In this document: positions 3,129 through 41,083 of the stretch, piece by piece
Layout of the letters: each line of letters starts with the position of its first letter
How positions within the stretch are numbered: the first letter of the stretch is position 1
DNA from: Somniosus microcephalus
Taxonomy: Eukaryota
Assembly: GCA_052327205.1 (NCBI GenBank)
Contig: CM126225.1
Location: 6,634,001-6,698,000, forward strand
Length of the DNA: 64,000 nucleotides
Reading direction: 5' to 3'
Position numbers and translations under genes: made by a program
The notes under the pieces: generated by a model
Databases searched by the model: none
Seen by the model: the letters and a program-made list of their open reading frames with translations, nothing else
Told to the model about the DNA's origin: nothing

Positions 3129-3852
3129 CTTTTGTTTCCTTCTCGGAAAGGGTCTTATCCGCGCCAGGAAACTGTAAGGAGGATGTCTCTTGTACAAAGG
3201 CACTTTCTCTTCCCCCTGTGCTCTTTCCCGGCTCTCCGCGGCCCGGATCTTTTGAGGTGCTCACTTTTATGTCTTTTTCACCTGGTTTGGAGGAGGCCGA
3301 CGTGGCGAAGGAAGAAGTGAAGGGAATGCTGGACTGAATCGAGCACGGAGCAGTGACTGGCTGCGGCTGGTTGTAATCCGTCGCTTTGTCTGATGGATAG
3401 TTCGGTTCAGAACGGAAGTAGCTGGGCACGGGGACCCTGCCACTGTCACTTGTGCACATTTCAGAAATCACCCTCGAGTACACTGAACCATCAGGGTGCG
3501 TCTTCGCATGCTTATCCCCGTCTAATAAACAGTAGTTGGCTTCTTCCTTGACGCTGGACGCGAAGGAGTAAGTGCTTAGCTGCTGAAGTCGGCCTGTGTG
3601 GCTGGATGGTGACGGGGTTGCCCATCCTGCCATGCCTGGCACGTACTGATGTGGAACCAAACCTAGACCTTGTTGGTGGTTCATCTCCCCTTGTTTACGA
3701 TGTGCTAAGTCAACTTGCCAATGCTGCACCCCGTAGCCCCGGTCCGGTCTGGAGGACAAATAACCCCCAAGACAGCAAGGCTCAGCCCGGCTGGAGCAAA
3801 TTAAAGACTTCACTGAAAACGAGCTTGAAGCAGAATTCTCAGAACATGACAT
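3129..3852 (-). CDS. HoxB10: Hox paralog group 10 gene, coding exon 1 (probably HoxB10); homeobox exon 2 not in window
   Basis: ORF MSCSENSASSSFSVKSLI...NHQ...YVP...W...SF...VKEE...VPVPSYFR matches Hox10 exon-1 motifs (HoxA10 MSCSESPAANSFLVDSLI; HoxD10 IKEE, VPVPGYFR; from memory). It ends at a phase-1 donor AAAG|GTGGGT (GT at 3128-3127). B-cluster assignment is inferred from the lack of intact Hox11/12 upstream and a non-HoxC10-like N-terminus. Confidence 0.85.
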
Positions 3853-15971: not shown

Positions 15972-16014
15972 TTGACCCCGGGGTCAAAGGTGACCTTGAC
16001 CTGACGGAAGTTCA
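15972..16014. promoter_or_regulatory. Composite nuclear-receptor response element
   Basis: TTGACCCCGGGGTCAAAGGTGACCTTGACCTGACGGAAGTTCA: six RGKTSA-type half-sites in 43 bp. Confidence 0.5.
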
Positions 16015-17414
16015 AAGACAGTGCTCATTAGGCCAGAAGGAGAGAAAAAGACGGCCAGGCACTTAAAGCATCTGCGTTTTCTGGGAAAGAGGCAGAGAGA
16101 AAGAGAGGGGTGATAAAAAAGCGAGAAAGGAAAGAATGAAGGGGAGACAGGGAGATAAAGAAAAGCAAGTCGTAGAGAGGAAGAAGGAGACAGTAAAGAG
16201 GTAAAAGGGGGACAAACAGACACATCCAATGAATCGGGCAGCATCTGTTATGAGAAAGAATGTCGTCATTTTGGGTAAAAATCATTAGGATTTATAAATT
16301 TCTGCTTTAATTAGAAATGTTCAGCCACTGCAGCCTGTTAAAAACTGAAACAGGCAGCGAGGGAGAAAAGGGCGAAGAGATAGACAGACCGAGGCAGAGG
16401 AATGAAGATGGAAAGTGGAAGGCGGAGAAAGGGGTGGAAAAGATGGGAAAGGAAGAGAGAGACTGGGGAGAGAGAGAGAGATAGAGGGAACAGAAGAAGG
16501 AGACAATAACAGATCGGAGAGACAAAAAACAGAACTGCCAGCAAAAGGCTTGTGCCTCTTATCCTATCAGAGCGGTTGTAGAGAAAGAGTCGAAATCTTA
16601 TTTCATCGACACACATGCAGCAACACGAATGGGAGGTGGTGGAGACATGAGCTTATCCGAGAATTGAAACTACAAATGATAGTCAAAGAGCGAGCGATCG
16701 AAAAATCGAGCCAAAGAAGAAATGAAGAAATGACAGGATAGACCGTAGAAAATGTGTCTTAATTTTAAAAAAAACCCTCAGTGTAAACAGTCGGACCCAT
16801 TCCCTCACTGTGAGATGCACATCTGGACAAACAGCCTGAATATTTTTCACCAGATAAAGTCCTGGCCTCTCCTAGTTCTACTGTATGTATGCAGGAAGTT
16901 GAAAATAACGAATTGGTCCCCGGCCCGTACGGAAAGCAAGTCTGGCTTTAAACATTGTGCAGGTTGTGTCACGGGCTCAACATGGCCGCTCGGGTTCCTG
17001 TGCTGGGACTACATAAATACAGGTCCCCCACCCTCGAGTGAGATTGTGACTGCTTGGCCTTTGTCCATTCAGTAAGTTTTAATTAAAAGAATAAATAAGA
17101 TAAATGCAAATATCCGTTAAACTCAACAAGGCGAGAGAGAGAGAGAAGTCTTGTTCTACCCGATATACACCAACGTCACAATTCGCGTCATGATTTCAAG
17201 TTGGTATTTGTTTTTTTCTCTCCATTTTTTGATTTCAGTCGAACTTCTCTTCCGTTAGAGACAGAGTGCTGGATCTACAGGCAGAGAGGTAAAAGGACAG
17301 AGTGCGGCGGAGAAATAAACACAGACAGGCACAGAGAGGGGCAAAGAGACACACAGAGGGAGAGAGAGAGACAGAGAATGCGACAGGGAATCTATCAGAA
17401 TGTAGGCGATGAAT

Positions 17415-21387: not shown

Positions 21388-23012
21388 GAATTACATCGAA
21401 TCTACAGCACAAAAACAAGCCATTTGGCACAAATGGTCCATGTAGGTGGTTACGCTCCACACGAGCCTCCTCCAACTCTAACCATCTCTTCCCACCCTGC
21501 CCCCATACCTCTCCCCTATTCCCTTCTCCCTCATGTATGCATCTGCCCTTAAATTCATCAATACTACCTGGTTCAACCATTCCATGTGGCAGCGAGTTCC
21601 ACATTCTCACCACTCTCTGCGTAAAGATATTCCTCCTAAATTCTTTATTTGATCTATTAATGGCTATCTTGTATTTATGCCCCCTTAACTCACTGGTATA
21701 AACGGTTTCTCCACCCTATTGAACCCTTTCATAATTTTCGAGACCTCTATCTGGTCTCCTCTTATATATATAAATAAATGATTTTGACTCAAAATTTGGA
21801 GGTACAGTGTCGACACTCTCAAATGATTGCAAATTGGGGCTACAGCTAATAATGGGTTAAAGCCATTCTCGTTTCCAGAGAAAAGAGACCCAGGCTGCTT
21901 AATCTTACCTGGTAGTTGCATACCCTCAATTTTAGTAACATCCTTGTAAATCTTTTTTCCACTTTCTCCAGTTATTATTATTTTGGTAGTATGCAAGTCA
22001 GATCTGCACATTCAAAGTTTAGTCTAGCCAAGGTTCTAAATAGATGTAATATGATCTCCCTGCTTTGTATTTTATTCCTCTACAAATCCACCCCAATCTT
22101 TATGGTGCTAGCAACTTGTATTGCTACTTTTAGTGATGTATGTAACTATATTCCCAAATCTCTTTACCAATCTACCCCATGTAGTTCCTTAACTTCCAAG
22201 GAATAGGTGGCCTCCTTATTCCTCCTACAAAAACGAACCACCTCACACTTCGCTATATTGAATTTTAATTGCTGTTTATCCACTTACTGTGCAAGCCTGT
22301 TTATGTCTTCCTTTATTTTGGTGCAGCCTTGCACATTATTAACAATAGCCCCCAATTTGGAATCATCTGAGAGTGTCGACACTGTAACCCCAACTACTGA
22401 GTCAAAATCATTTATATATATGGTGAAAAACAGTTGTCCCAGCACAGATTGTTGTAGGACACCACTTCCTACTTTCTGCTAGTCTGAGAAAGTTTATTTA
22501 ACTCCTACCCTCTGTTTTCCATTTTGCAGACATCTTTCAGTCCATTCTGCTGCCTGGCTCCTGATTCCACACAGCCTGACACCTTCTCAAAAGCCTTCTG
22601 AAAGCCCGAGTATACCGCATCCACTTCATCGCCCTTGTCTATTCTTTCTGTTATTTTTCCAAAGAATTCAATAAGGGTTGGTTAAACACGACCCTCCTTC
22701 TAGAAATCAATGCTGACTATTTTTCATTATATTCTCGTATTTGATTCTAGTATTATTCCTACTACTTACGTTAAGCTAACCAGTCTATAGTTCCCTGGAT
22801 TAGTTATATCTCCCTTTTTGCAGATAAGAATTACATTTGTTGCACGCCATTCTATTGGCACTGTTCCTTTTCTATTGATTTAAAAAAAAAATATATATAT
22901 AAGTAGCTCTGCTATCTTCTCCTATCTACCTAGTTTATTTGAGTATCTGTGGGTGCAATCCATCTGGACCCGGGGTCTTGCCCTCCTTAAGTTTGTCTAG
23001 TTTGTCTATTAT
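21388..23012 (-). mobile_element. Degenerate CR1 LINE fragments (RT and 3' end)
   Basis: MVRMWNSLP; reverse-complement NYRLVSL, DFQKAF and xDDSKLG remnants. Confidence 0.8.
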
Positions 23013-24747
23013 CTCCTTTCTCGCCAATTTAACTGTTGTAATAACATTGACTTTTGCTGAACTGCCATTGCACGATAGACCTGTGCTTTGGAGTATTTTG
23101 TAAAATATGTACGGCCTCTACTCTCAGACAATTGTGTTTGATTATGAATAACACAAAGTGCAACCACTTGCAATAGTTGTACAAAACTCGACATGGAGCC
23201 ACATGGGCAAGCGCTTGCCCATAAAAATATTGCAACTCTCCAAACCCTGTAAAGTTAATTTCAGAGAGATTGCGAGATGGCGGAGCGGGAGTCGAGTTTT
23301 ATCTATAAGTTCCCAATTCTGGTAAACATTTAGTTGCGTCAAATTAGTTTAGAACTTTTCACTGATAACTATATTTTAAAAATGGTAAAAGATGCTATGA
23401 AACTGAACAGTTTAAAAGCAAAGTTCTTAACAATTGTTAGTTAGAAATATCTTCAAACCTTCACTTTTATCAAAAGGATGAAGAGCAGATAGAATTGTTC
23501 TTGCCCAGTGGGTTTATCTTGTGCCGACGCTGTACATGTTTCCATTATGTCCTGGAACTCAAATGAAAGATTTTGTTTATCAAACAATTAAGATTTGAAG
23601 TTAGCACGTAATTTGGGATGTAATTTGGGATGTAATGTAAAGTATTTCTTAGCGCAATATTTTTCCCTAAGGATTGCATGCAACAATGCATATTACTAAA
23701 TGAATCTTCCTTCATTTTTCAGTACTCCCATATTTTGAGAACTAAGATATTCAATTCTACAACCCAGCATTCTCACCAAACCCATTTTCTGCTAACATTG
23801 ATGGGTTTTATATTCTTGTTATCCTGTGACAAGAACACCGTGCTTAGATTGAAATGAGGATTACATTAATTGAAATGGTTTAAATCTCGACTGACAATGT
23901 ATTAAGTGACATTTAAACATTGCTGCACACGATTTAATGGAGAAAGCGAGGATCATTGTGTCATGCTAACTTGTTTTAGTCAAATAAATACTGAAAGGGA
24001 CCAATGTAATATATGGCGTCCGTTGTAAATATGCAATATCAGGAAGGTGCAGCAATCGTTATAAATGTCTACGCTTCTGTGTATCTTTTCTTTATAGTCT
24101 AAATGATGTTTAAAGCGCGCCATGGGCACTTAAATCGGTTGTATTGAAAATTAAAGCTTGAAGGTCCTTTCAGCGATAAAGAGAAAATTATAAACTCTGC
24201 ACACTTTCTGCCAAAGGCTGGTGTTGCACTGTGCGTTTGCAAAGCTAGTTCTGGTCTGTAATACAAATTCACCTACAATATTCATCTTTGAGGGTCAGTT
24301 TATTTATACTGGCGAGACATTTCGATGTTATATGCAAGTTTAATGTGGATTTCGAAGGGATGGCGAGTGCCTTCATCCCTCGGATTGTATGTTGCCCTCA
24401 ATTTAATGGATTTTAAAACTCGAGTGAATAACTGCAGTTGGATTTGCAGGGCCAGCGCTTAAAGTTACTAGGAACCAAACGGCCTTCGACATCTGGTCTC
24501 ATCTGGAAGCCGAGCTGATTTTTCCAAGTTAAAAACTCAGCTCCACAAGTGAAGAATTTAGCACCAGCATAAATGCTAATGAAAACCCAGTAAAATGTGT
24601 CCCAGAATAAGAGCGGTGGCCACTTTAAGGGGTCGGGTATACAACAGCCCGATAGAGTCGGGGTCTCTAGTGAAGTGTGTTCGATTCTATTGACATTAAG
24701 TGAAATGCAACATTTTTTTTCCAGTCCGAAACTGAATTTGTCTACCG

Positions 24748-24945
24748 CTTTTTTTCACTCACCAAACAATGATAAGAATTTCGCCCTAACGCGCCAGATA
24801 AACTTCAGATTCCTGGATTAAAAGCTATTGGCCTTTTCTTTGTTTGTGTGGAGTTGGAAGCTCTCTCTCGCTCTCTAGCACCAAATTTGATGTTTGCTAC
24901 AAGAGGCACCCCTGCCTCTGTCTCTTTTTTTCTTCAGCCAGTTGT
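24748..24945 (-). pseudogene. Hox11-like pseudogene, homeobox (exon 2) remnant; candidate psi-HoxB11
   Basis: After acceptor-like CTAACAG (AG 24947-24946): AGA AAA AAA (g) AGA [RKKR] .. TGC c(t)CT TGT AGC AAA CAT CAA ATT TGG .. CTA GAG .. GAG AGA GAG .. TTC .. AAC .. AAC AAA GAA AAG [NKEK] .. TCC AGG AAT CTG AAG .. CGT TAG .. GCG AAA TTC .. GAA AAA AAG [EKK]. Collinear with the Hox11 homeodomain, with frameshifts and stops. Confidence 0.75.
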
Positions 24946-25344
24946 CTGTTAGCACATAAAATTTGCACAGACAGGCAATAAAGTGTCTGGCTGCTGTGTA
25001 CGCTCCCTATACAACGGCTTGGGGAAAAAACCCGCTGATTTTAAAGGCTGCCACAGCACAACCGTGGGATTGATATTTTAGCTTCTACCCGCATTAGAAT
25101 GTATAGTCTCTATATATTTTTGGAAATGCTGACATTTTTTTTTCGTTGGTGGATAGAGATTTTAGAAGAACTCTAAAAACAATCAACACCACTGTGAAAA
25201 CAAATCTGTAAATTGTACTTGATCGTGGATGTTTGGTGTGAAGTTTTCAAAGTTTAAAGCACCATTAATTAATTTTAATTGTAAATATTCTGCATGGGTA
25301 AAAATCCAGGGTTTTAAAATACAGGATGGATTGGGAAAAAAAAT

Positions 25345-25941
25345 CAGTGTCTTGTTGGAATTTCGTTGCCTCTGCTCGCGCTCTGGGCTTTTTATGACCG
25401 TATCTGGGGCGACTGGCTGCAACTGAGTGAACTTCTCTTGTTATTCCTGTCGCGAAATTGTTTTCCCTCCTGCAGTTTCTAACCTTGAAACGGTTCCAGT
25501 CCTAAACTCTATTCCCTGGACGCATTCCCCTGTGGAACTTGTCGCTCATTCTAGAGCGGATGTTAATTCGAGTGATTGTTTAACGTGTTGAATATTCGAA
25601 TAAGAATCTAATTCTATTGACTGGTTTCTTGTTTGCTGCTGGCATGTTGTTGGCGAACCTTATAGAAACCAGTTTAATTTTTTGGGGGGTGGGGGCAAGG
25701 TTTAATTAATTAACACATAAAGCTGCATCGCCAACATACATAGACAAGCAGCACCTATTAAAAACGGCACCATCTAAAGTCAGAAAGATCTGTCTATTGC
25801 AGTGCAGGCGTCTCAGTACTTCACGAAATCCCAGGTTAGACCCGCCTTTGGACAAAATTGACATTCTTAAAATTCACACGCAATTGCTCTTCATATATGT
25901 ACCTAAGGGTAAATAAATTACCTCCTCTCGTCTTTCAACAT
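25345..25941 (-). pseudogene. Hox11-like pseudogene, exon 1 remnant; candidate psi-HoxB11
   Basis: CACC ATG TTG AAA GAC GAG AGG (MxxDER), YLPxGTY, SILSK, SNL, REV, AID, KFHRGMRPGNRV* (cf. NFYSTVGRNGVL) and LETAGG (cf. FETAYG), in Hox11 order with broadly similar spacing; donor not located. Confidence 0.7.
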
Positions 25942-25965
25942 GGTGAACCACATGGCGTACGATGT

Positions 25966-25977
25966 GATCACGTGATC
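25966..25977. promoter_or_regulatory. Palindromic E-box GATCACGTGATC just upstream of the psi-Hox11 ATG
   Basis: Perfect 12-bp palindrome with a CACGTG core (USF/TFE class), 25 bp from the relic ATG. Confidence 0.45.
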
Positions 25978-28900
25978 GCACCAAGAATGCACCATTACTT
26001 GTACCATACACTTCAGAGGCCAACATTGGTTCAAAGGCGGTGGGAAGTCTGCAGTGTTTTAAATGCATCTTTTATTATTGTGTCTGTTGTGGTGTCGATT
26101 CGCAGTGGTAGCCATCGAGCTGCAGAACACAGATATCTCGTGTGAAAATACTGATGATGATTTCGCCGCTCATCTCTTGGAATTAACAAGTAAAAATGTT
26201 GAATTTTATTGTAAGGGCCTGTTGTAGCGACTGTTTATTTTAATAAACACAATCTTGGCCTACTCCTACTCCTATTTCTCCTGTTCTTATGTCAGAATCC
26301 TGTCTAATCGCCAAATAGCTATTTTAAAACATCCCATAATTATTTATTTGACTAACTTGTTTCCCAAACTACCACGCATTTTTTATTGATCGTAATAATT
26401 GATTCAAAATGTCCTTTCAAGGTGACTTGCGCAATATATCCTCCCAAGGTACAGTAGTTAATTAGTACCAGTCTGCCTGTTTTACAATAATTTTAATTGC
26501 AATTCTATTGAGACGTCTTAAATCTAACCAAAAATGAGCACACCGTGTTCCAGTCAGAGCATGCAAGTATTGCCCTGTGATTGTCACCGTTCTGCCAATC
26601 AAGCATGTGGAATGTGGCACAAATCTCGTTATTTGTTTTCTTTTGAAATTGAAGTCAAAACTGCAACAAATTCTTTGGAAAAAGGATTAACCCGAGTAAC
26701 TTATTTAAACCTTTCACTCTGTACATTGGTTGTGAATTTTTTTTTTTTTACTTTAGGGACGCGTTTTATTCCCCGCGGTATAAGAATACAAAATATTGGA
26801 GGAAATATTACATCATGCTTGGCCGGCCCGCACACATTAGCATCGAGGCTTTCGCTGACGCCAGCGCTTTCTCTTCAGAGTTCGTTCATAAATCCATGCA
26901 GTTCGCTGGATCCGAGAAAAATAATTGATGAAAGTACAAAAAGAAACAGAGAAGTTGGTCATTCATTCATCTCTATGTTGATGCTGCAGCATAGTTTTTA
27001 AACTGGCTTTCCAGGGTTTATGGGAGGGTTCATTTCAGGATCGTGGATTAAACCCAAGCATTGTGAAATGAACAAATATGTTCGTTTGCAATCAACATAG
27101 GAATAGCAGGATACTTAGTGCCAATGAAACTACTGCATCGCTGCAGGACAATGGTCTTGGAACGTGGCTGAGCTGAGCTCTCCAGCAGCTTTGAAAATAA
27201 TTCCCTATCGAAAGCAATGAATAGAAATATTCATTCGTTTTCAATAAGAGCGCTGACTAATGCACAAAATGTTCAGCACTCGGCCAAGGTATAAGACTCT
27301 CAGAAGCGCTGTTCATACACAGTAATTTTTGTGAGCATTTTAAACTTTTAGCCGATGCTCTGAAGAACGACACTCGGTGTCTACACACCAACATCCAAAC
27401 AGATTATTTAACTAGCCAGCAAATAAACTGCCGCTTTCCCGTCTCGTTTCTCCGTGCACTTGTAGTACCCACTCCGCGAAGACTAATGGTTAGCAGTAAA
27501 CAAATTCAGCCCTCAAACGGATGCTGGCTCAAAGATAGACGAACCGACCACTTCCCCCTGTTTTACTGACAGGCAAACATGTTCCTCATTCCAACTTTCT
27601 CCTCATAAACTCCTGTCCGAAAGGATGTCTACAGACATTCTCGAAATTAAATATCTCAAGCATTTTTTCACCGGCTTACTCTTTAAACGTTAACATATAT
27701 CTTCCTTTTGCAAAAAAATCTGTAACTATTTATAAATAATCCCTTTCGGGATGTCTAACAAAAATTGAAAGTTGGTAACTTTTCTATTTTTAGTGAAACT
27801 TTTAAAATGTAAACTATGTTGCAGTTACGTACGGTTTGACATTGAAATAGCAAACAGAAGTATTCCACTTAAATATACAAACATCAGATTAATTCTAAAA
27901 TGATAGTATTCGTGCACATATCTCAATAAAAACCTTTAGCACGTGGGTTTAGGAATACACTGATTTTTTTGTTAATCTAACCATAACACAAGGGACAATA
28001 TCTGTTTTGCAATATTTTTTGTGATAGAAAATACGAAATTCAAGAGCGAGGTTAAGGAGACTGGTTGTCTGGGATAAAAACGGAAGATTCCGGAAAGACA
28101 CAGCGGGTCAATTAACAGCGGCGGAGACAATGGGCAAGTAAGCCGTTGGTAAACACCTGAAAGCCTCGCCGGTTTTACTGTTAGCAGGTTGAGTGATTTG
28201 CTGAGCATTTTAGTGCATTTTATTTTAATTTCAAATTTCTAACATTGCACGAATTAAATATTTAAAAACTCTGGCTTTGTATAAACATAATTAAATAACT
28301 TTGAATACAGACAAAACAAGTGAGTTTACAGCGTTATTTCCAAAGCCGGATTAATGTGACAGGCTGATTTTTGCCTGTTTAACCGTTGCCCAGGCTTTAC
28401 AAACACACAAGTAACCTGACTCCCGCAAATGTTCATCACCTTTACTGTGTCGTAATATTGTAGCAGGTATAGAGAGGAAATAGGGAGCATTGCACCAGAT
28501 AAGGTTCCTCCTCCCCTTAAAGGAACTGCAAATTGAACATTAATTATTTTTCCTGTAAATGCACCCCATGATCAGCGTGTAAATATCTAGTCCCACTCTG
28601 CGTGTTTCCGACAGGATCGCATTTTTCAAGTGTCGTTTTACAATGAAGTTCTACAAGTTTTGTATAAAATAAAAACATTTCGTCTATAAAACAAATTTCA
28701 GCGATTTTTCCCCTTTTATCGCCGATTCCTGTCCTGTAGGCACAATTAGCGCCCATCTGATTTTTAATAATTTCACTCGTTCAGTACAAATGAGTTACTT
28801 CAACCGCAAACAGGTCTACTCGGGTTGGGGGAAACTGAATCAGGAAACAAAATGATTACAGACTGGTTCCACAATTAATGCAAGATAAACTGTGTCTCGC

Positions 28901-30479
28901 CCAGTCCAAGAAGCGTGAAGGAATTGGTCTGAATGGTAAACCAATACATACCGTTTTAAATCCAAGTTTGGAGGATCACGCCGTTCGTAACAACCGCTTT
29001 ACATTCAATGTCAAAACGGCACACACAAAATGATCAATGATGGAGAATAAAGAAGGCAAAATTGTTTTAACAAAAATGTAAATCGTTATAAATGATTTTC
29101 TTTTATTTTTTAACGAGAGGTCAAGGTGAAAAGCTAAGGTCCAGAGTGCACCGCACCACAAAGGCTCCTCCAAACAGTTAAACAAAAGAGGAGGAAGTCA
29201 ATTAGAAAATAATGATTAGGTGACGCTAATATTGCGATTTAAAGTCCTGAAAACGGTAGAAAGGTAAAACTGAGGGAGGTAAGAAGGCGCACGGTTCTGG
29301 GAAAGAAGGATCCGCAGTGGGAACCTGTGAATGAGTGTTGAGGATGCAGGGAGGGGGGGTGGTTTATGGAACCACACACTTGGAGCTTACAAGGAACAAG
29401 CCCGAGAAGTTCATAGCTGCAATGGTCATAGCAGAGAGACAGACAGACAAAGACCGAAAGGGTATGATGAATACATTACTTACTCTTAATAGGTTTACAT
29501 ACTGGAGGCAACTTAGGAGAAAAGAGCCGATGTGATTCATTTTACACCGTGCAGGGTTGAACTTGTACCTGTAATAACAACACCAAGAAGTGGAAAGCGT
29601 CAGCACTCGCGCAATGTGTGTGCATAATATTAACTCGTGCAGTGCTCGAGTTTCGAGGTCCTCGTTTTCATTGGTTGCAAAAGTCTCATTTTACACCTTA
29701 AAAGGTTCCTACACTGTTTCCGGATTTCAGTTGCAATCGGGACAAAGTCACATAACCATAAATTGTCAATATTTCTGTGTATTTTTCCACTGAGTTTGTA
29801 TCATAGCAACAGCTCTGTAGATTGTGACACTTTCACCTTTCCTATACACAGAGACATGCACAATATATCTTTCCACACAAATATAAACTCTCTCTCACAC
29901 AAGTATACCGCAGCCTTTACTACACACACATTCTCGCTCTCACACAAAAGCTGTAAAGGTCAAAATAATTAAACTATTAAACGGATATTTGCTAGAAATA
30001 TTCAATAGGGAATATAACACTATCCGGCCATCCAATTCTTGTAACATTCCCGATGACAGAGGAGTTTGTAGTTAGTACGGCGGAGCTGCTTGCCAAGTTA
30101 ACGGGACTTTAACACTGACAAATTATTTGGGACTGATGGGATCGAACCTGTGGATTTTGACGCCAACAAGAGAGGAATTTGCGTCGCAAGGCTATCGTCA
30201 TGAGCGAATCACTGGGCACTGCTGAGGTTTTGTCGGACTGAAAGCAGCATATTTATTGCCTAGGTTTTAAAAGGGTAACATATCTGATCGAGGTAACGAC
30301 AAACTCATTAGCCTAATATCAATAATAGCTAAAATCATGGAAACTATTCTAATGGAAAGGCTGGAGGTCACGTTTATGTAGCATCTTATCACCTGGAGAT
30401 GTCTCAAAGCACTTCACACAGTGATTTATATTGAAGTGCAGTGACTTGTTATTTACACGAATAACTTAATAAGAGTGGT

Positions 30480-30930
30480 CGGGGGCATAAAGGGTTAAAT
30501 TAAGGGGACAGGTTGCATATACATGGCTTGTATTCTCTTGAGTTTAAAAGATTGCGGGGTGTACTAATCAAGGTATTTAAAATGATTAAGGGATTCGATA
30601 GCGTTGATAAATTATTTCCTCCGGTAGGGGAATCCAGAACAAGCGGACACAATCCTTAAATTGGAGCTAGACCATTTAGGTGTGAAATCAGGAAGCATTT
30701 TTTCGCACAAAGTGTAGTGGAAATTGGAACTCTCTCCCCCAAAAGATTGTGGAAGCTGGGGGTCAACTGAAATTTTCAAGACTGGGATCGATAGATTTTT
30801 CTTGGGTAAGGGTATTAGGGGAAATGGAACGAAGGCGGGTAAATTGAGTTAAGGTACAGATCAGCCATGATCTAATTTGAATGTCGGAACAAGCTCGATG
30901 GGCTGAACGGCCTGCTACTGTTGCTATGTT
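30480..30930 (+). mobile_element. CR1 LINE 3' fragment, flanked by older CR1 RT remnants (~30270-31370)
   Basis: Same family as 19120-19586 (gtacagatcagccatgatct..gggctgaacggcct). Confidence 0.8.
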
Positions 30931-40949: not shown

Positions 40950-41083
40950 CCAACAGGGGGCGCTCTAACCAAAACTGTCCGTTCCCAGCCTGCCTCTAGC
41001 AGGTGACCTGGCAGAGGCATCAGCAATATGCTGATATTTCCTTTGAAACGTTTAGCAAATTAATACAGCCCACCAGAAGGCAC
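40950..41083 (+). promoter_or_regulatory. Tandem CTCF-like motifs
   Basis: CCAACAGGGGGCGC (40950-40963) and CCACCAGAAGGCAC (41070-41083); weaker CTAGCAGGTGACC between them. Confidence 0.55.

Follow-up and report, generated by a model that had tools for sequence, protein, structure and literature searches.

A decayed homeobox, very probably of group 11, in the HoxB11 slot of Somniosus microcephalus, with a Hox10-like 5' side

A worn homeobox in a Hox cluster of Somniosus microcephalus is very probably a genuine fossil of group 11 that occupies the slot of HoxB11. The window analysed is a stretch of 64,000 nucleotides (positions 6634001-6698000 of contig C24, CM126225.1) from a genome of 6.4 Gb, and positions given without a contig are those of the window. 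Judged by its homology, slot, strand, lesions and retained intron, which all fit, the relic is an unprocessed, in-cluster Hox pseudogene. Its 5' side is likely Hox10-like, with an NWL arm before the homeodomain and an intron start resembling that of HoxB10. We consider it probable that this is a dead HoxB11 with a group-11 core and tail, whose intron start and arm were copied from HoxB10 by ectopic recombination. The relic is single-copy in the genome, an Rfam search returned 0 hits, and we regard it as a fossil to which we assign no function today.

Contig C24 carries 11 clustered homeoboxes, of which groups 4-10 and 13 were read directly and groups 1-3 by position only; none of them is an intact group 11 or 12. 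Intact Hox11 genes were found on three other contigs (C5, C4 and C33), and the HoxA11 and HoxD12 of this genome match named chondrichthyan HoxA11 and HoxD12 proteins at 93-97%. By its complement (groups 1-10 and 13) and by elimination, the A, C and D clusters being elsewhere, the cluster is identified as HoxB. A first, sequence-only reading of this DNA had placed the relic in a HoxB cluster at the HoxB11 position, and the neighbourhood bears this out, with intact Hox11 genes on other contigs and with HoxB13 and HoxB10 as flanks. HoxB13 sits 12 kb outside the window, and the 72-kb gap between it and HoxB10 contains the relic. Exon 1 of HoxB10 is intact (3129-3852, minus strand), and its intron, from which the intron start of the relic was likely derived, runs from 3128 to position 6631890 of the contig, a length of 5.2 kb compared with 1.2-1.6 kb in A10 and D10. 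The HoxC cluster on C33 (38.05-38.26 Mb) is expanded and repeat-rich, with C8-C13 homeoboxes and with exon 1 of C13 not located; its C11 has long proline and histidine runs.

Evidence of position that is independent of the relic's sequence comes from a non-coding element at 15976-16021 (minus strand), paralogous to one that lies 3' of both HoxA11 and HoxD11 (25.5 bits, next best 5.0, over 3606 windows). It is the single match in the B interval; the other copies lie 2.4 kb past the A11 stop and 1.7 kb past the D11 stop, and match each other at 13.4 bits. The element fixes the spacer between Hox11 and Hox10. From the end of the relic to the element is 8.7 kb, with the relic on the upstream side, the side on which Hox11 is found in A and D. 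The order of HoxB13, CTCF-like site, relic, conserved element and HoxB10 parallels the A and D clusters, and a CTCF-like site following Hox13 is common to HoxA, HoxB and HoxD. These sites were called with the CTCF consensus; those in the gap between HoxB13 and HoxB10 are at 40963 and 41083, and at 74264 in window numbering. The spacer element, shared by the three clusters, has nuclear-receptor-like half sites, and the copy described here may be the counterpart, in the B cluster, of the element called 'region IX' at Hoxd11.

Several other candidates were rejected. A match to the HoxA11 promoter and 5' UTR at 16006-15909 (minus strand, 11-12 bits) overlaps the spacer element, scores -1.3 bits for D11 and has no exon nearby. 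For a psi-HoxB12 in the interval between HoxB13 and HoxB10, exon 2 gave nothing and exon 1 at best 5.0 bits at 29476-29241 (minus strand), not significant over 289 windows, although this stretch lies about where psi-HoxB12 would sit. A psi-HoxA8 scored 10 bits with the full profile and 1-4 bits without its purine-rich tail. No psi-HoxB14 was found in the 106 kb upstream of HoxB13.

Of the two exons, exon 2 is the one that can be recognised. Scores come from a decay-aware model of our own making, which allows for neutral decay and indels and was built from 2-4 paralogs of this one genome, in which 24 intact Hox genes were modelled as queries and controls. Against the Hox11 profile, the decayed homeobox and tail (24708-24945, minus strand) score 23 bits (22.6-23.2 local), a value reached by none of 828 interval windows (maximum 4.6) and by none of 2000 dinucleotide shuffles (maximum 9.9), while the reversed sequence gives -0.5 bits. 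With a three-gene Hox11 profile, nhmmer made the site the top match of the 72-kb interval between HoxB13 and HoxB10, on the Hox strand (E=0.001). Nucleotide alignments with C11, D11 and A11 cover 24921 to 24708-24748 and score 2379-3308, where unrelated queries reach about 1200-2100, and the match of group 9 and 10 queries is limited to the first 85-90 bases (A10 at 2960). Over 11 other intergenic stretches the highest score of the group-11 profile was 7.4 bits, at psi-HoxA14; as a control of the method, this pseudogene was recovered with a Hox14 query, at 60 bits. The sequence-only reading had proposed shuffled and reversed controls, both of which exon 2 exceeds by far, together with frameshift-aware protein alignment. 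In the latter, made with plain BLOSUM62, the Hox11 signal does not rise above background for either exon (33-35 at exon 2, compared with 38-47 elsewhere).

All the letters reported in that reading are present in their places in both putative exons, those of exon 2 being SKHQIW (24898-24881), NKEK (24844-24833), SRNLK (24817-24803) and EKK (24756-24742), all on the minus strand. The relic extends some 40 bases beyond the end first proposed; its last part, which reaches 24708, aligns with the FTGNPLL-like tail of Hox11. A likely splice acceptor, putatively used, was read from the sequence at 24946-24952 (minus strand); its phase, 1, is that of all 24 modelled intact Hox genes. Within exon 2, 88 of 133 invariant sites are retained. 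The exon is frameshifted, with 8 gap events, stops in all three frames and helix 3 gone, which upholds the description of a fossil, that is, a dead gene; as read, the relic cannot encode a homeodomain now. A trend towards C>T lesions did not hold up, since the 45 changes at the 133 invariant sites include 5 of type C>T and 4 of type G>A, which is no excess.

The paralog group was judged piece by piece. At the diagnostic loop and helix 2, which include NKEK and SRNLK (24785-24870, minus strand), the group-11 sequence (VYINKEKRLQLSRML) is recognised at 10.9 bits, reached by none of 1616 windows, and the group-10 homeodomain core (MYLTRERRLEIS) fails at -5.5 bits (rank 916/1616); groups 9, 12 and 13 give -5.3, -0.2 and 0.6 bits. 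Helix 1 does not separate the groups (7.1 bits for group 11, 8.7 for group 10). The recognition helix region (24735-24810, minus strand) is erased, with no WFQNRR left (-2.4 bits, a score equalled or exceeded in 419 of 1828 windows). The tail, aligned with the Hox11 C-terminus from EKK to GNPLL (24708-24756, minus strand), is weak alone and does not tell group 11 (3.0 bits, 12/1828) from group 10 (2.3 bits, 14/1828). Over the whole of exon 2, the other profiles reach 16-17 bits for group 10, 5-7 for group 9, 1-4 for group 13 and about 0 for group 12. Of 1950 simulations that started from genes of other groups, 1672 were detected, and just one of these reached the group-11 margin of 7.3 bits, compared with 325 of 398 from Hox11 genes. 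The initial assignment to group 11 holds for the homeobox core, which on these scores is of that group, and for the tail by alignment.

A decayed tandem duplicate of HoxB10, with the likeness to Hox11 due to chance, would account for the 16-17 bits of group 10 on exon 2, for an nhmmer match of group 10 at the same site (E=0.0075) and for BLOSUM alignments in which group 10 scores highest (45-51 for A10, B10 and C10). This is nevertheless very improbable, given the opposite scores of the two groups at the loop and helix 2, the position of the relic upstream of the Hox11-Hox10 spacer element, and the group-10 simulations, of which 0 of 562 detected reach the group-11 margin.

In front of the core, the codons NWL (24935-24943, minus strand) form a tryptophan arm of Hox9/Hox10 type, whose distance to the cysteine codon is one base less than in group 10. 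The arm scores 5.8 bits (1 of 6491 windows), and for a longer arm the count is 0 of 6486. NWL before the homeodomain is absent from all 92 Hox11 proteins among the homologs, a set in which cyclostome proteins were not identifiable, and from all 58 group-11 representatives, 3 of which carry an unrelated W. Since the arm is present, the relic is not classed as pure Hox11. The group-10 advantage at the arm arose in 0 of 1000 simulations started from the intron end of each of three Hox11 genes. A joined profile of groups 10 and 11 scores 29.4-31.8 bits locally with breaks up to the end of helix 1, compared with 23.6 for pure group 11; among the 13 breaks tried, the gain of 6-8 bits lasts to the end of helix 1 and is gone past NKEK.

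Further upstream, a likely splice donor (25484/25483) opens a HoxB10-like intron start (25383-25487, minus strand; 18.9 bits, 0/387). The query, consisting of the first 110 bases of the HoxB10 intron, matched at 25487-25383 with the AG/GT donor in register, and the relic was its best of 5686 windows (18.2 bits; next 6.1). Reciprocally, the best match of the relic piece among about 23,000 Hox-locus windows was the B10 donor (17.2 bits; next 10.7). When 24 intron starts were compared with the relic region, that of B10 alone matched it (9.6 bits, with no other above 1.8), and those of A10, C10, D10, A11, C11 and D11 gave no match there. The B10 match is post hoc, because it was found by tiling (79 tiles; best 8.7 bits in tiling). 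Intron starts of B8, C8, C10, C11 and C12 reached 16-22 bits elsewhere in the interval, presumably owing to simple repeats. The B10 exon-1 tail showed no match beside the donor (rank 152-162 of 387; C10 0 and 37, D10 10 and 8), and neither the B10 intron end (17% of null) nor the B10 upstream tiles matched at the relic. Measured from this donor to the acceptor, the intron, at first described as short, comes to about 538 bases, and LETAGG (25482-25465, minus strand), first taken for a coding motif, can be read just inside the HoxB10-like intron start, behind the donor. A double TTTTAT motif occurs 60-130 bases into the A11, C11 and D11 introns, and at 24982-24940, ahead of the acceptor of the relic, there is a stretch weakly resembling it.

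These Hox10-like features need not have been acquired by the relic: HoxB11 may have kept an ancestral W arm and an intron start shared with B10, or copying may have gone from B11 to B10, and in either case the relic would not be recombinant. The B10 intron start matches those of A10 and D10 only weakly (1.5 and 3.2 bits), which would fit such a reading, and cyclostome Hox11 proteins could not be picked from unnamed matches. We regard this reading as quite improbable, however, given that it requires three separate losses, that the NWL arm is missing from every one of the 92 and 58 Hox11 proteins, and that the intron starts of A11, C11 and D11 score -6 to -10 bits against that of B10. The intron also bears on whether the relic might have arisen by retroposition from the mRNA of another Hox11 gene, or might not be a feature in the first place. 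Exon 1 is illegible, and a tblastn-type genome search did not have the relic in its list. Both possibilities are largely refuted and can hardly be credited: the sequence includes an intron-like part, its slot and strand are as expected, the shuffles never reached the score of exon 2, and joining the exon-1 tail to exon 2, as in a spliced copy, lowers the score (24.1 vs 25.6 bits; rank 561/1622).

The presumed exon 1 region (25484-26030, minus strand) is not assignable to a group and leans weakly to group 10. Letters read there, all on the minus strand, include a start context with MLKDER (25945-25927), the stretch YLPLGTY (25915-25895), REV (25825-25817), AID (25800-25792) and the 39-base stretch singled out in the sequence-only reading (25540-25502); an M..FLV.S-like stretch (26026-25966) also leans weakly to group 10. 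That reading had considered both exons still legible as Hox11, a view that exon 1 does not support, being at chance level in whole-exon, core and motif tests. Pfam PF12045 (DUF3528, Hox11 exon 1) matched the three intact genes and nothing at the relic, and nhmmer with Hox11 exon 1 had no match there. Glocal alignment ranked the site 60/298 for A11 and 269/298 for D11, the exon-1 profile ranked it 78-99 of 298, and 12 parameter sets gave ranks of 176-261 of 536 windows and 101-232 of 300 shuffles; single Hox11 exon-1 motifs were likewise at chance level. With group 10, the upstream region plus exon 1 ranked 4-5 of 304, compared with 9/304 for group 9 and 32-39 of 304 for group 11, and the lean of exon 1 to group 10 over group 11 was not significant, including when anchored. 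The power of these tests is limited, as simulations at d=0.6 score as low as the real sequence in 2% (A11) and 33% (D11) of 60 runs each, so the low score leaves room for a very worn Hox11 exon 1.

A plain psi-HoxB11, with both exons derived from Hox11 and the Hox10-like pieces arising by chance, would fit the group-11 core, the slot and the strand, and the simulations show that a worn exon 1 can drop to chance level. A Hox11 promoter-like piece (26018-25783; 0.44% of windows) and an intron-like motif (24982-24940; 0.22%) even stand in the correct order, but once the search region is counted they too are at chance level (ranks 45-69 of 338). Moreover, two separate coincidences, both towards group 10, would be required, and we consider this reading unlikely. 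As features of the relic, a Hox11 promoter, intron motif and 3' UTR were each rejected at chance level.

In the recombinant origin that we favour, HoxB11 would have survived the genome duplications as a gene. The tandem genes B11 and B10 would then have mispaired, leading either to gene conversion or to unequal crossing-over followed by loss of the extra copy, with the template switching within or close to helix 1, a stretch almost the same in groups 10 and 11. The hybrid may have been redundant or harmful, and would subsequently have decayed through point changes and small indels. Unequal crossing-over predicts a second Hox11 homeobox or a second spacer element; because none was seen in the stretches searched, conversion fits better, with later deletion being possible.

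The decay of the relic (d about 0.4-0.5, range 0.25-0.7) can be compared with that of psi-HoxA14 in the same genome (0.25, range 0.15-0.4), next to which it appears about twice as worn, with overlapping ranges. The loss is old, and likely older than that of A14 here. The relic had been said at first to bear on the timing of the loss; decay gives wear relative to psi-HoxA14 and no date, and does not place the loss before or after the bony-fish split. Dating by fourfold sites was rejected, as these are near saturation between duplicate clusters (p=0.65 over 653 sites). Between the piece of the B10 intron and the copy of it in the relic, divergence is about 0.6 over both branches. The psi-HoxA14 itself has a split homeobox (60 bits against D14) on C5 at about 210256800-210256990 and 210261300-210261400, with an exon-1 trace (11.9 bits) about 2.5 kb upstream, and HoxD14 on C4 (245662624-245660900) has an intact-looking, intron-split homeobox.

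The relic lies in a block (22719-30489) that is repeat-poor, according to an incomplete repeat mask derived from the analysed loci, and that retains CpG. Its CpG observed/expected ratio is 0.73, like that of intact cluster DNA (0.75-0.85), and the flank upstream of HoxB13 is at 0.44. With this mask the block shows one repeat piece, 40 bases long (26256-26295), which belongs to a highly abundant repeat and lies a short way upstream of the relic. Sharks have a low mutation rate, which for one species is given as 7e-10 per base and generation (PMC10587355). Slow change of shark DNA together with this repeat-poor, CpG-retaining block is likely to be why the relic can still be read.

Relatives were compared in 4 of 24 listed sequencing runs; among the indexed runs, none of RNA was listed as containing the region. 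Contigs of organism B span all 3701 bases of the compared region with 11 differences, and a single contig of organism E covers 23620-27300 with 233 differences and 34 gap letters. In organism C, with 55% of the run read, 23620-24811 is covered, and among the differences listed 11/183 fall in the end of exon 2 and 33/1039 in the flank (p=0.08). Parts are covered in organism F, where 3 differences in 256 bases were counted in the contig that includes the B10-like piece, compared with 32/1065 elsewhere (p=0.13). The gaps in the coverage of C and F are not a sign of absence. It is possible, though we regard it as rather doubtful, that HoxB11 was not deleted straight after the duplications but destroyed through recombination with HoxB10, that it lived as a hybrid whose fossil persists across sharks and chimaeras, and that it possibly died after cartilaginous and bony fishes had split.

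To our knowledge, the gnathostome HoxB clusters described so far are without groups 11 and 12, and HoxB11 is a gap in the published gnathostome Hox charts examined, so far as their available portions go. The literature covered on HoxB11, HoxB12 and shark Hox pseudogenes, which was partial (few subscription journals and no supplements), contained no report of the relic. In-cluster Hox pseudogenes known from the accessible text of earlier papers are those of A14, B14, D12, D13 and D14 (PMC3707753, PMC7875771, PMC4470032, PMC7269910, PMC2746220; see also PMC8423624, PMC3038165, PMC3091776, bioRxiv 2025.06.08.657570). A physical remnant indicates that the B cluster once had a HoxB11, which decayed where it stood, and following its sequence through the chondrichthyans offers a way of dating the loss. 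To judge by the B10-like front, recombination of a Hox gene with its neighbour may be one cause of loss. If the hybrid is real, caution is needed with Hox phylogenies that assume independent evolution of tandem paralogs, and if HoxB11 died after the split of cartilaginous and bony fishes, one gene is added to the Hox set of crown gnathostomes.

The Lepore and anti-Lepore globin fusions are likewise hybrids of two tandem paralogs joined within a stretch of high identity; unlike them, the relic is ancient, fixed and dead, and its mechanism is inferred. Closest in setting are psi-HoxA14 and psi-HoxB14 of the elephant shark, which in the available text are also unprocessed Hox pseudogenes in their own slots of a chondrichthyan cluster (PMC3707753), the former being recovered in the present genome too by the method used for the relic. 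Group 14, however, has intact orthologs elsewhere in those clusters, such as HoxA14 in lungfish (PMC7875771), whereas the accessible sources describe no intact HoxB11; the relic also appears about twice as decayed as psi-HoxA14, and looks mosaic. The psi-HoxD12 of caecilians (PMC3091776) and psi-HoxD13 of the coelacanth (PMC4470032) similarly lie within their clusters, with frameshifts and stops and with repeats accumulating beside them. As far as these sources could be consulted, both were found via living orthologs and are much younger, whereas the relic can be compared with paralogs only. The hoxd14 pseudogenes of bowfin and gar (PMC8423624) are, like the relic, dead Hox genes long kept in place, but bowfin hoxd14 is transcribed and retains WFQNQR, by the available account, whereas the relic lacks helix 3 and is known from its sequence alone. 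The same interval is represented in amniotes, whose HoxB clusters are without b10, b11 and b12, by the spacer between Hoxb9 and Hoxb13, where the accessible text describes CTCF sites left 'as if' deletion had removed Hox genes (bioRxiv 10.1101/2024.07.20.604409). In the shark interval, by contrast, a coding remnant survives, which points to decay in place and not to a clean deletion.
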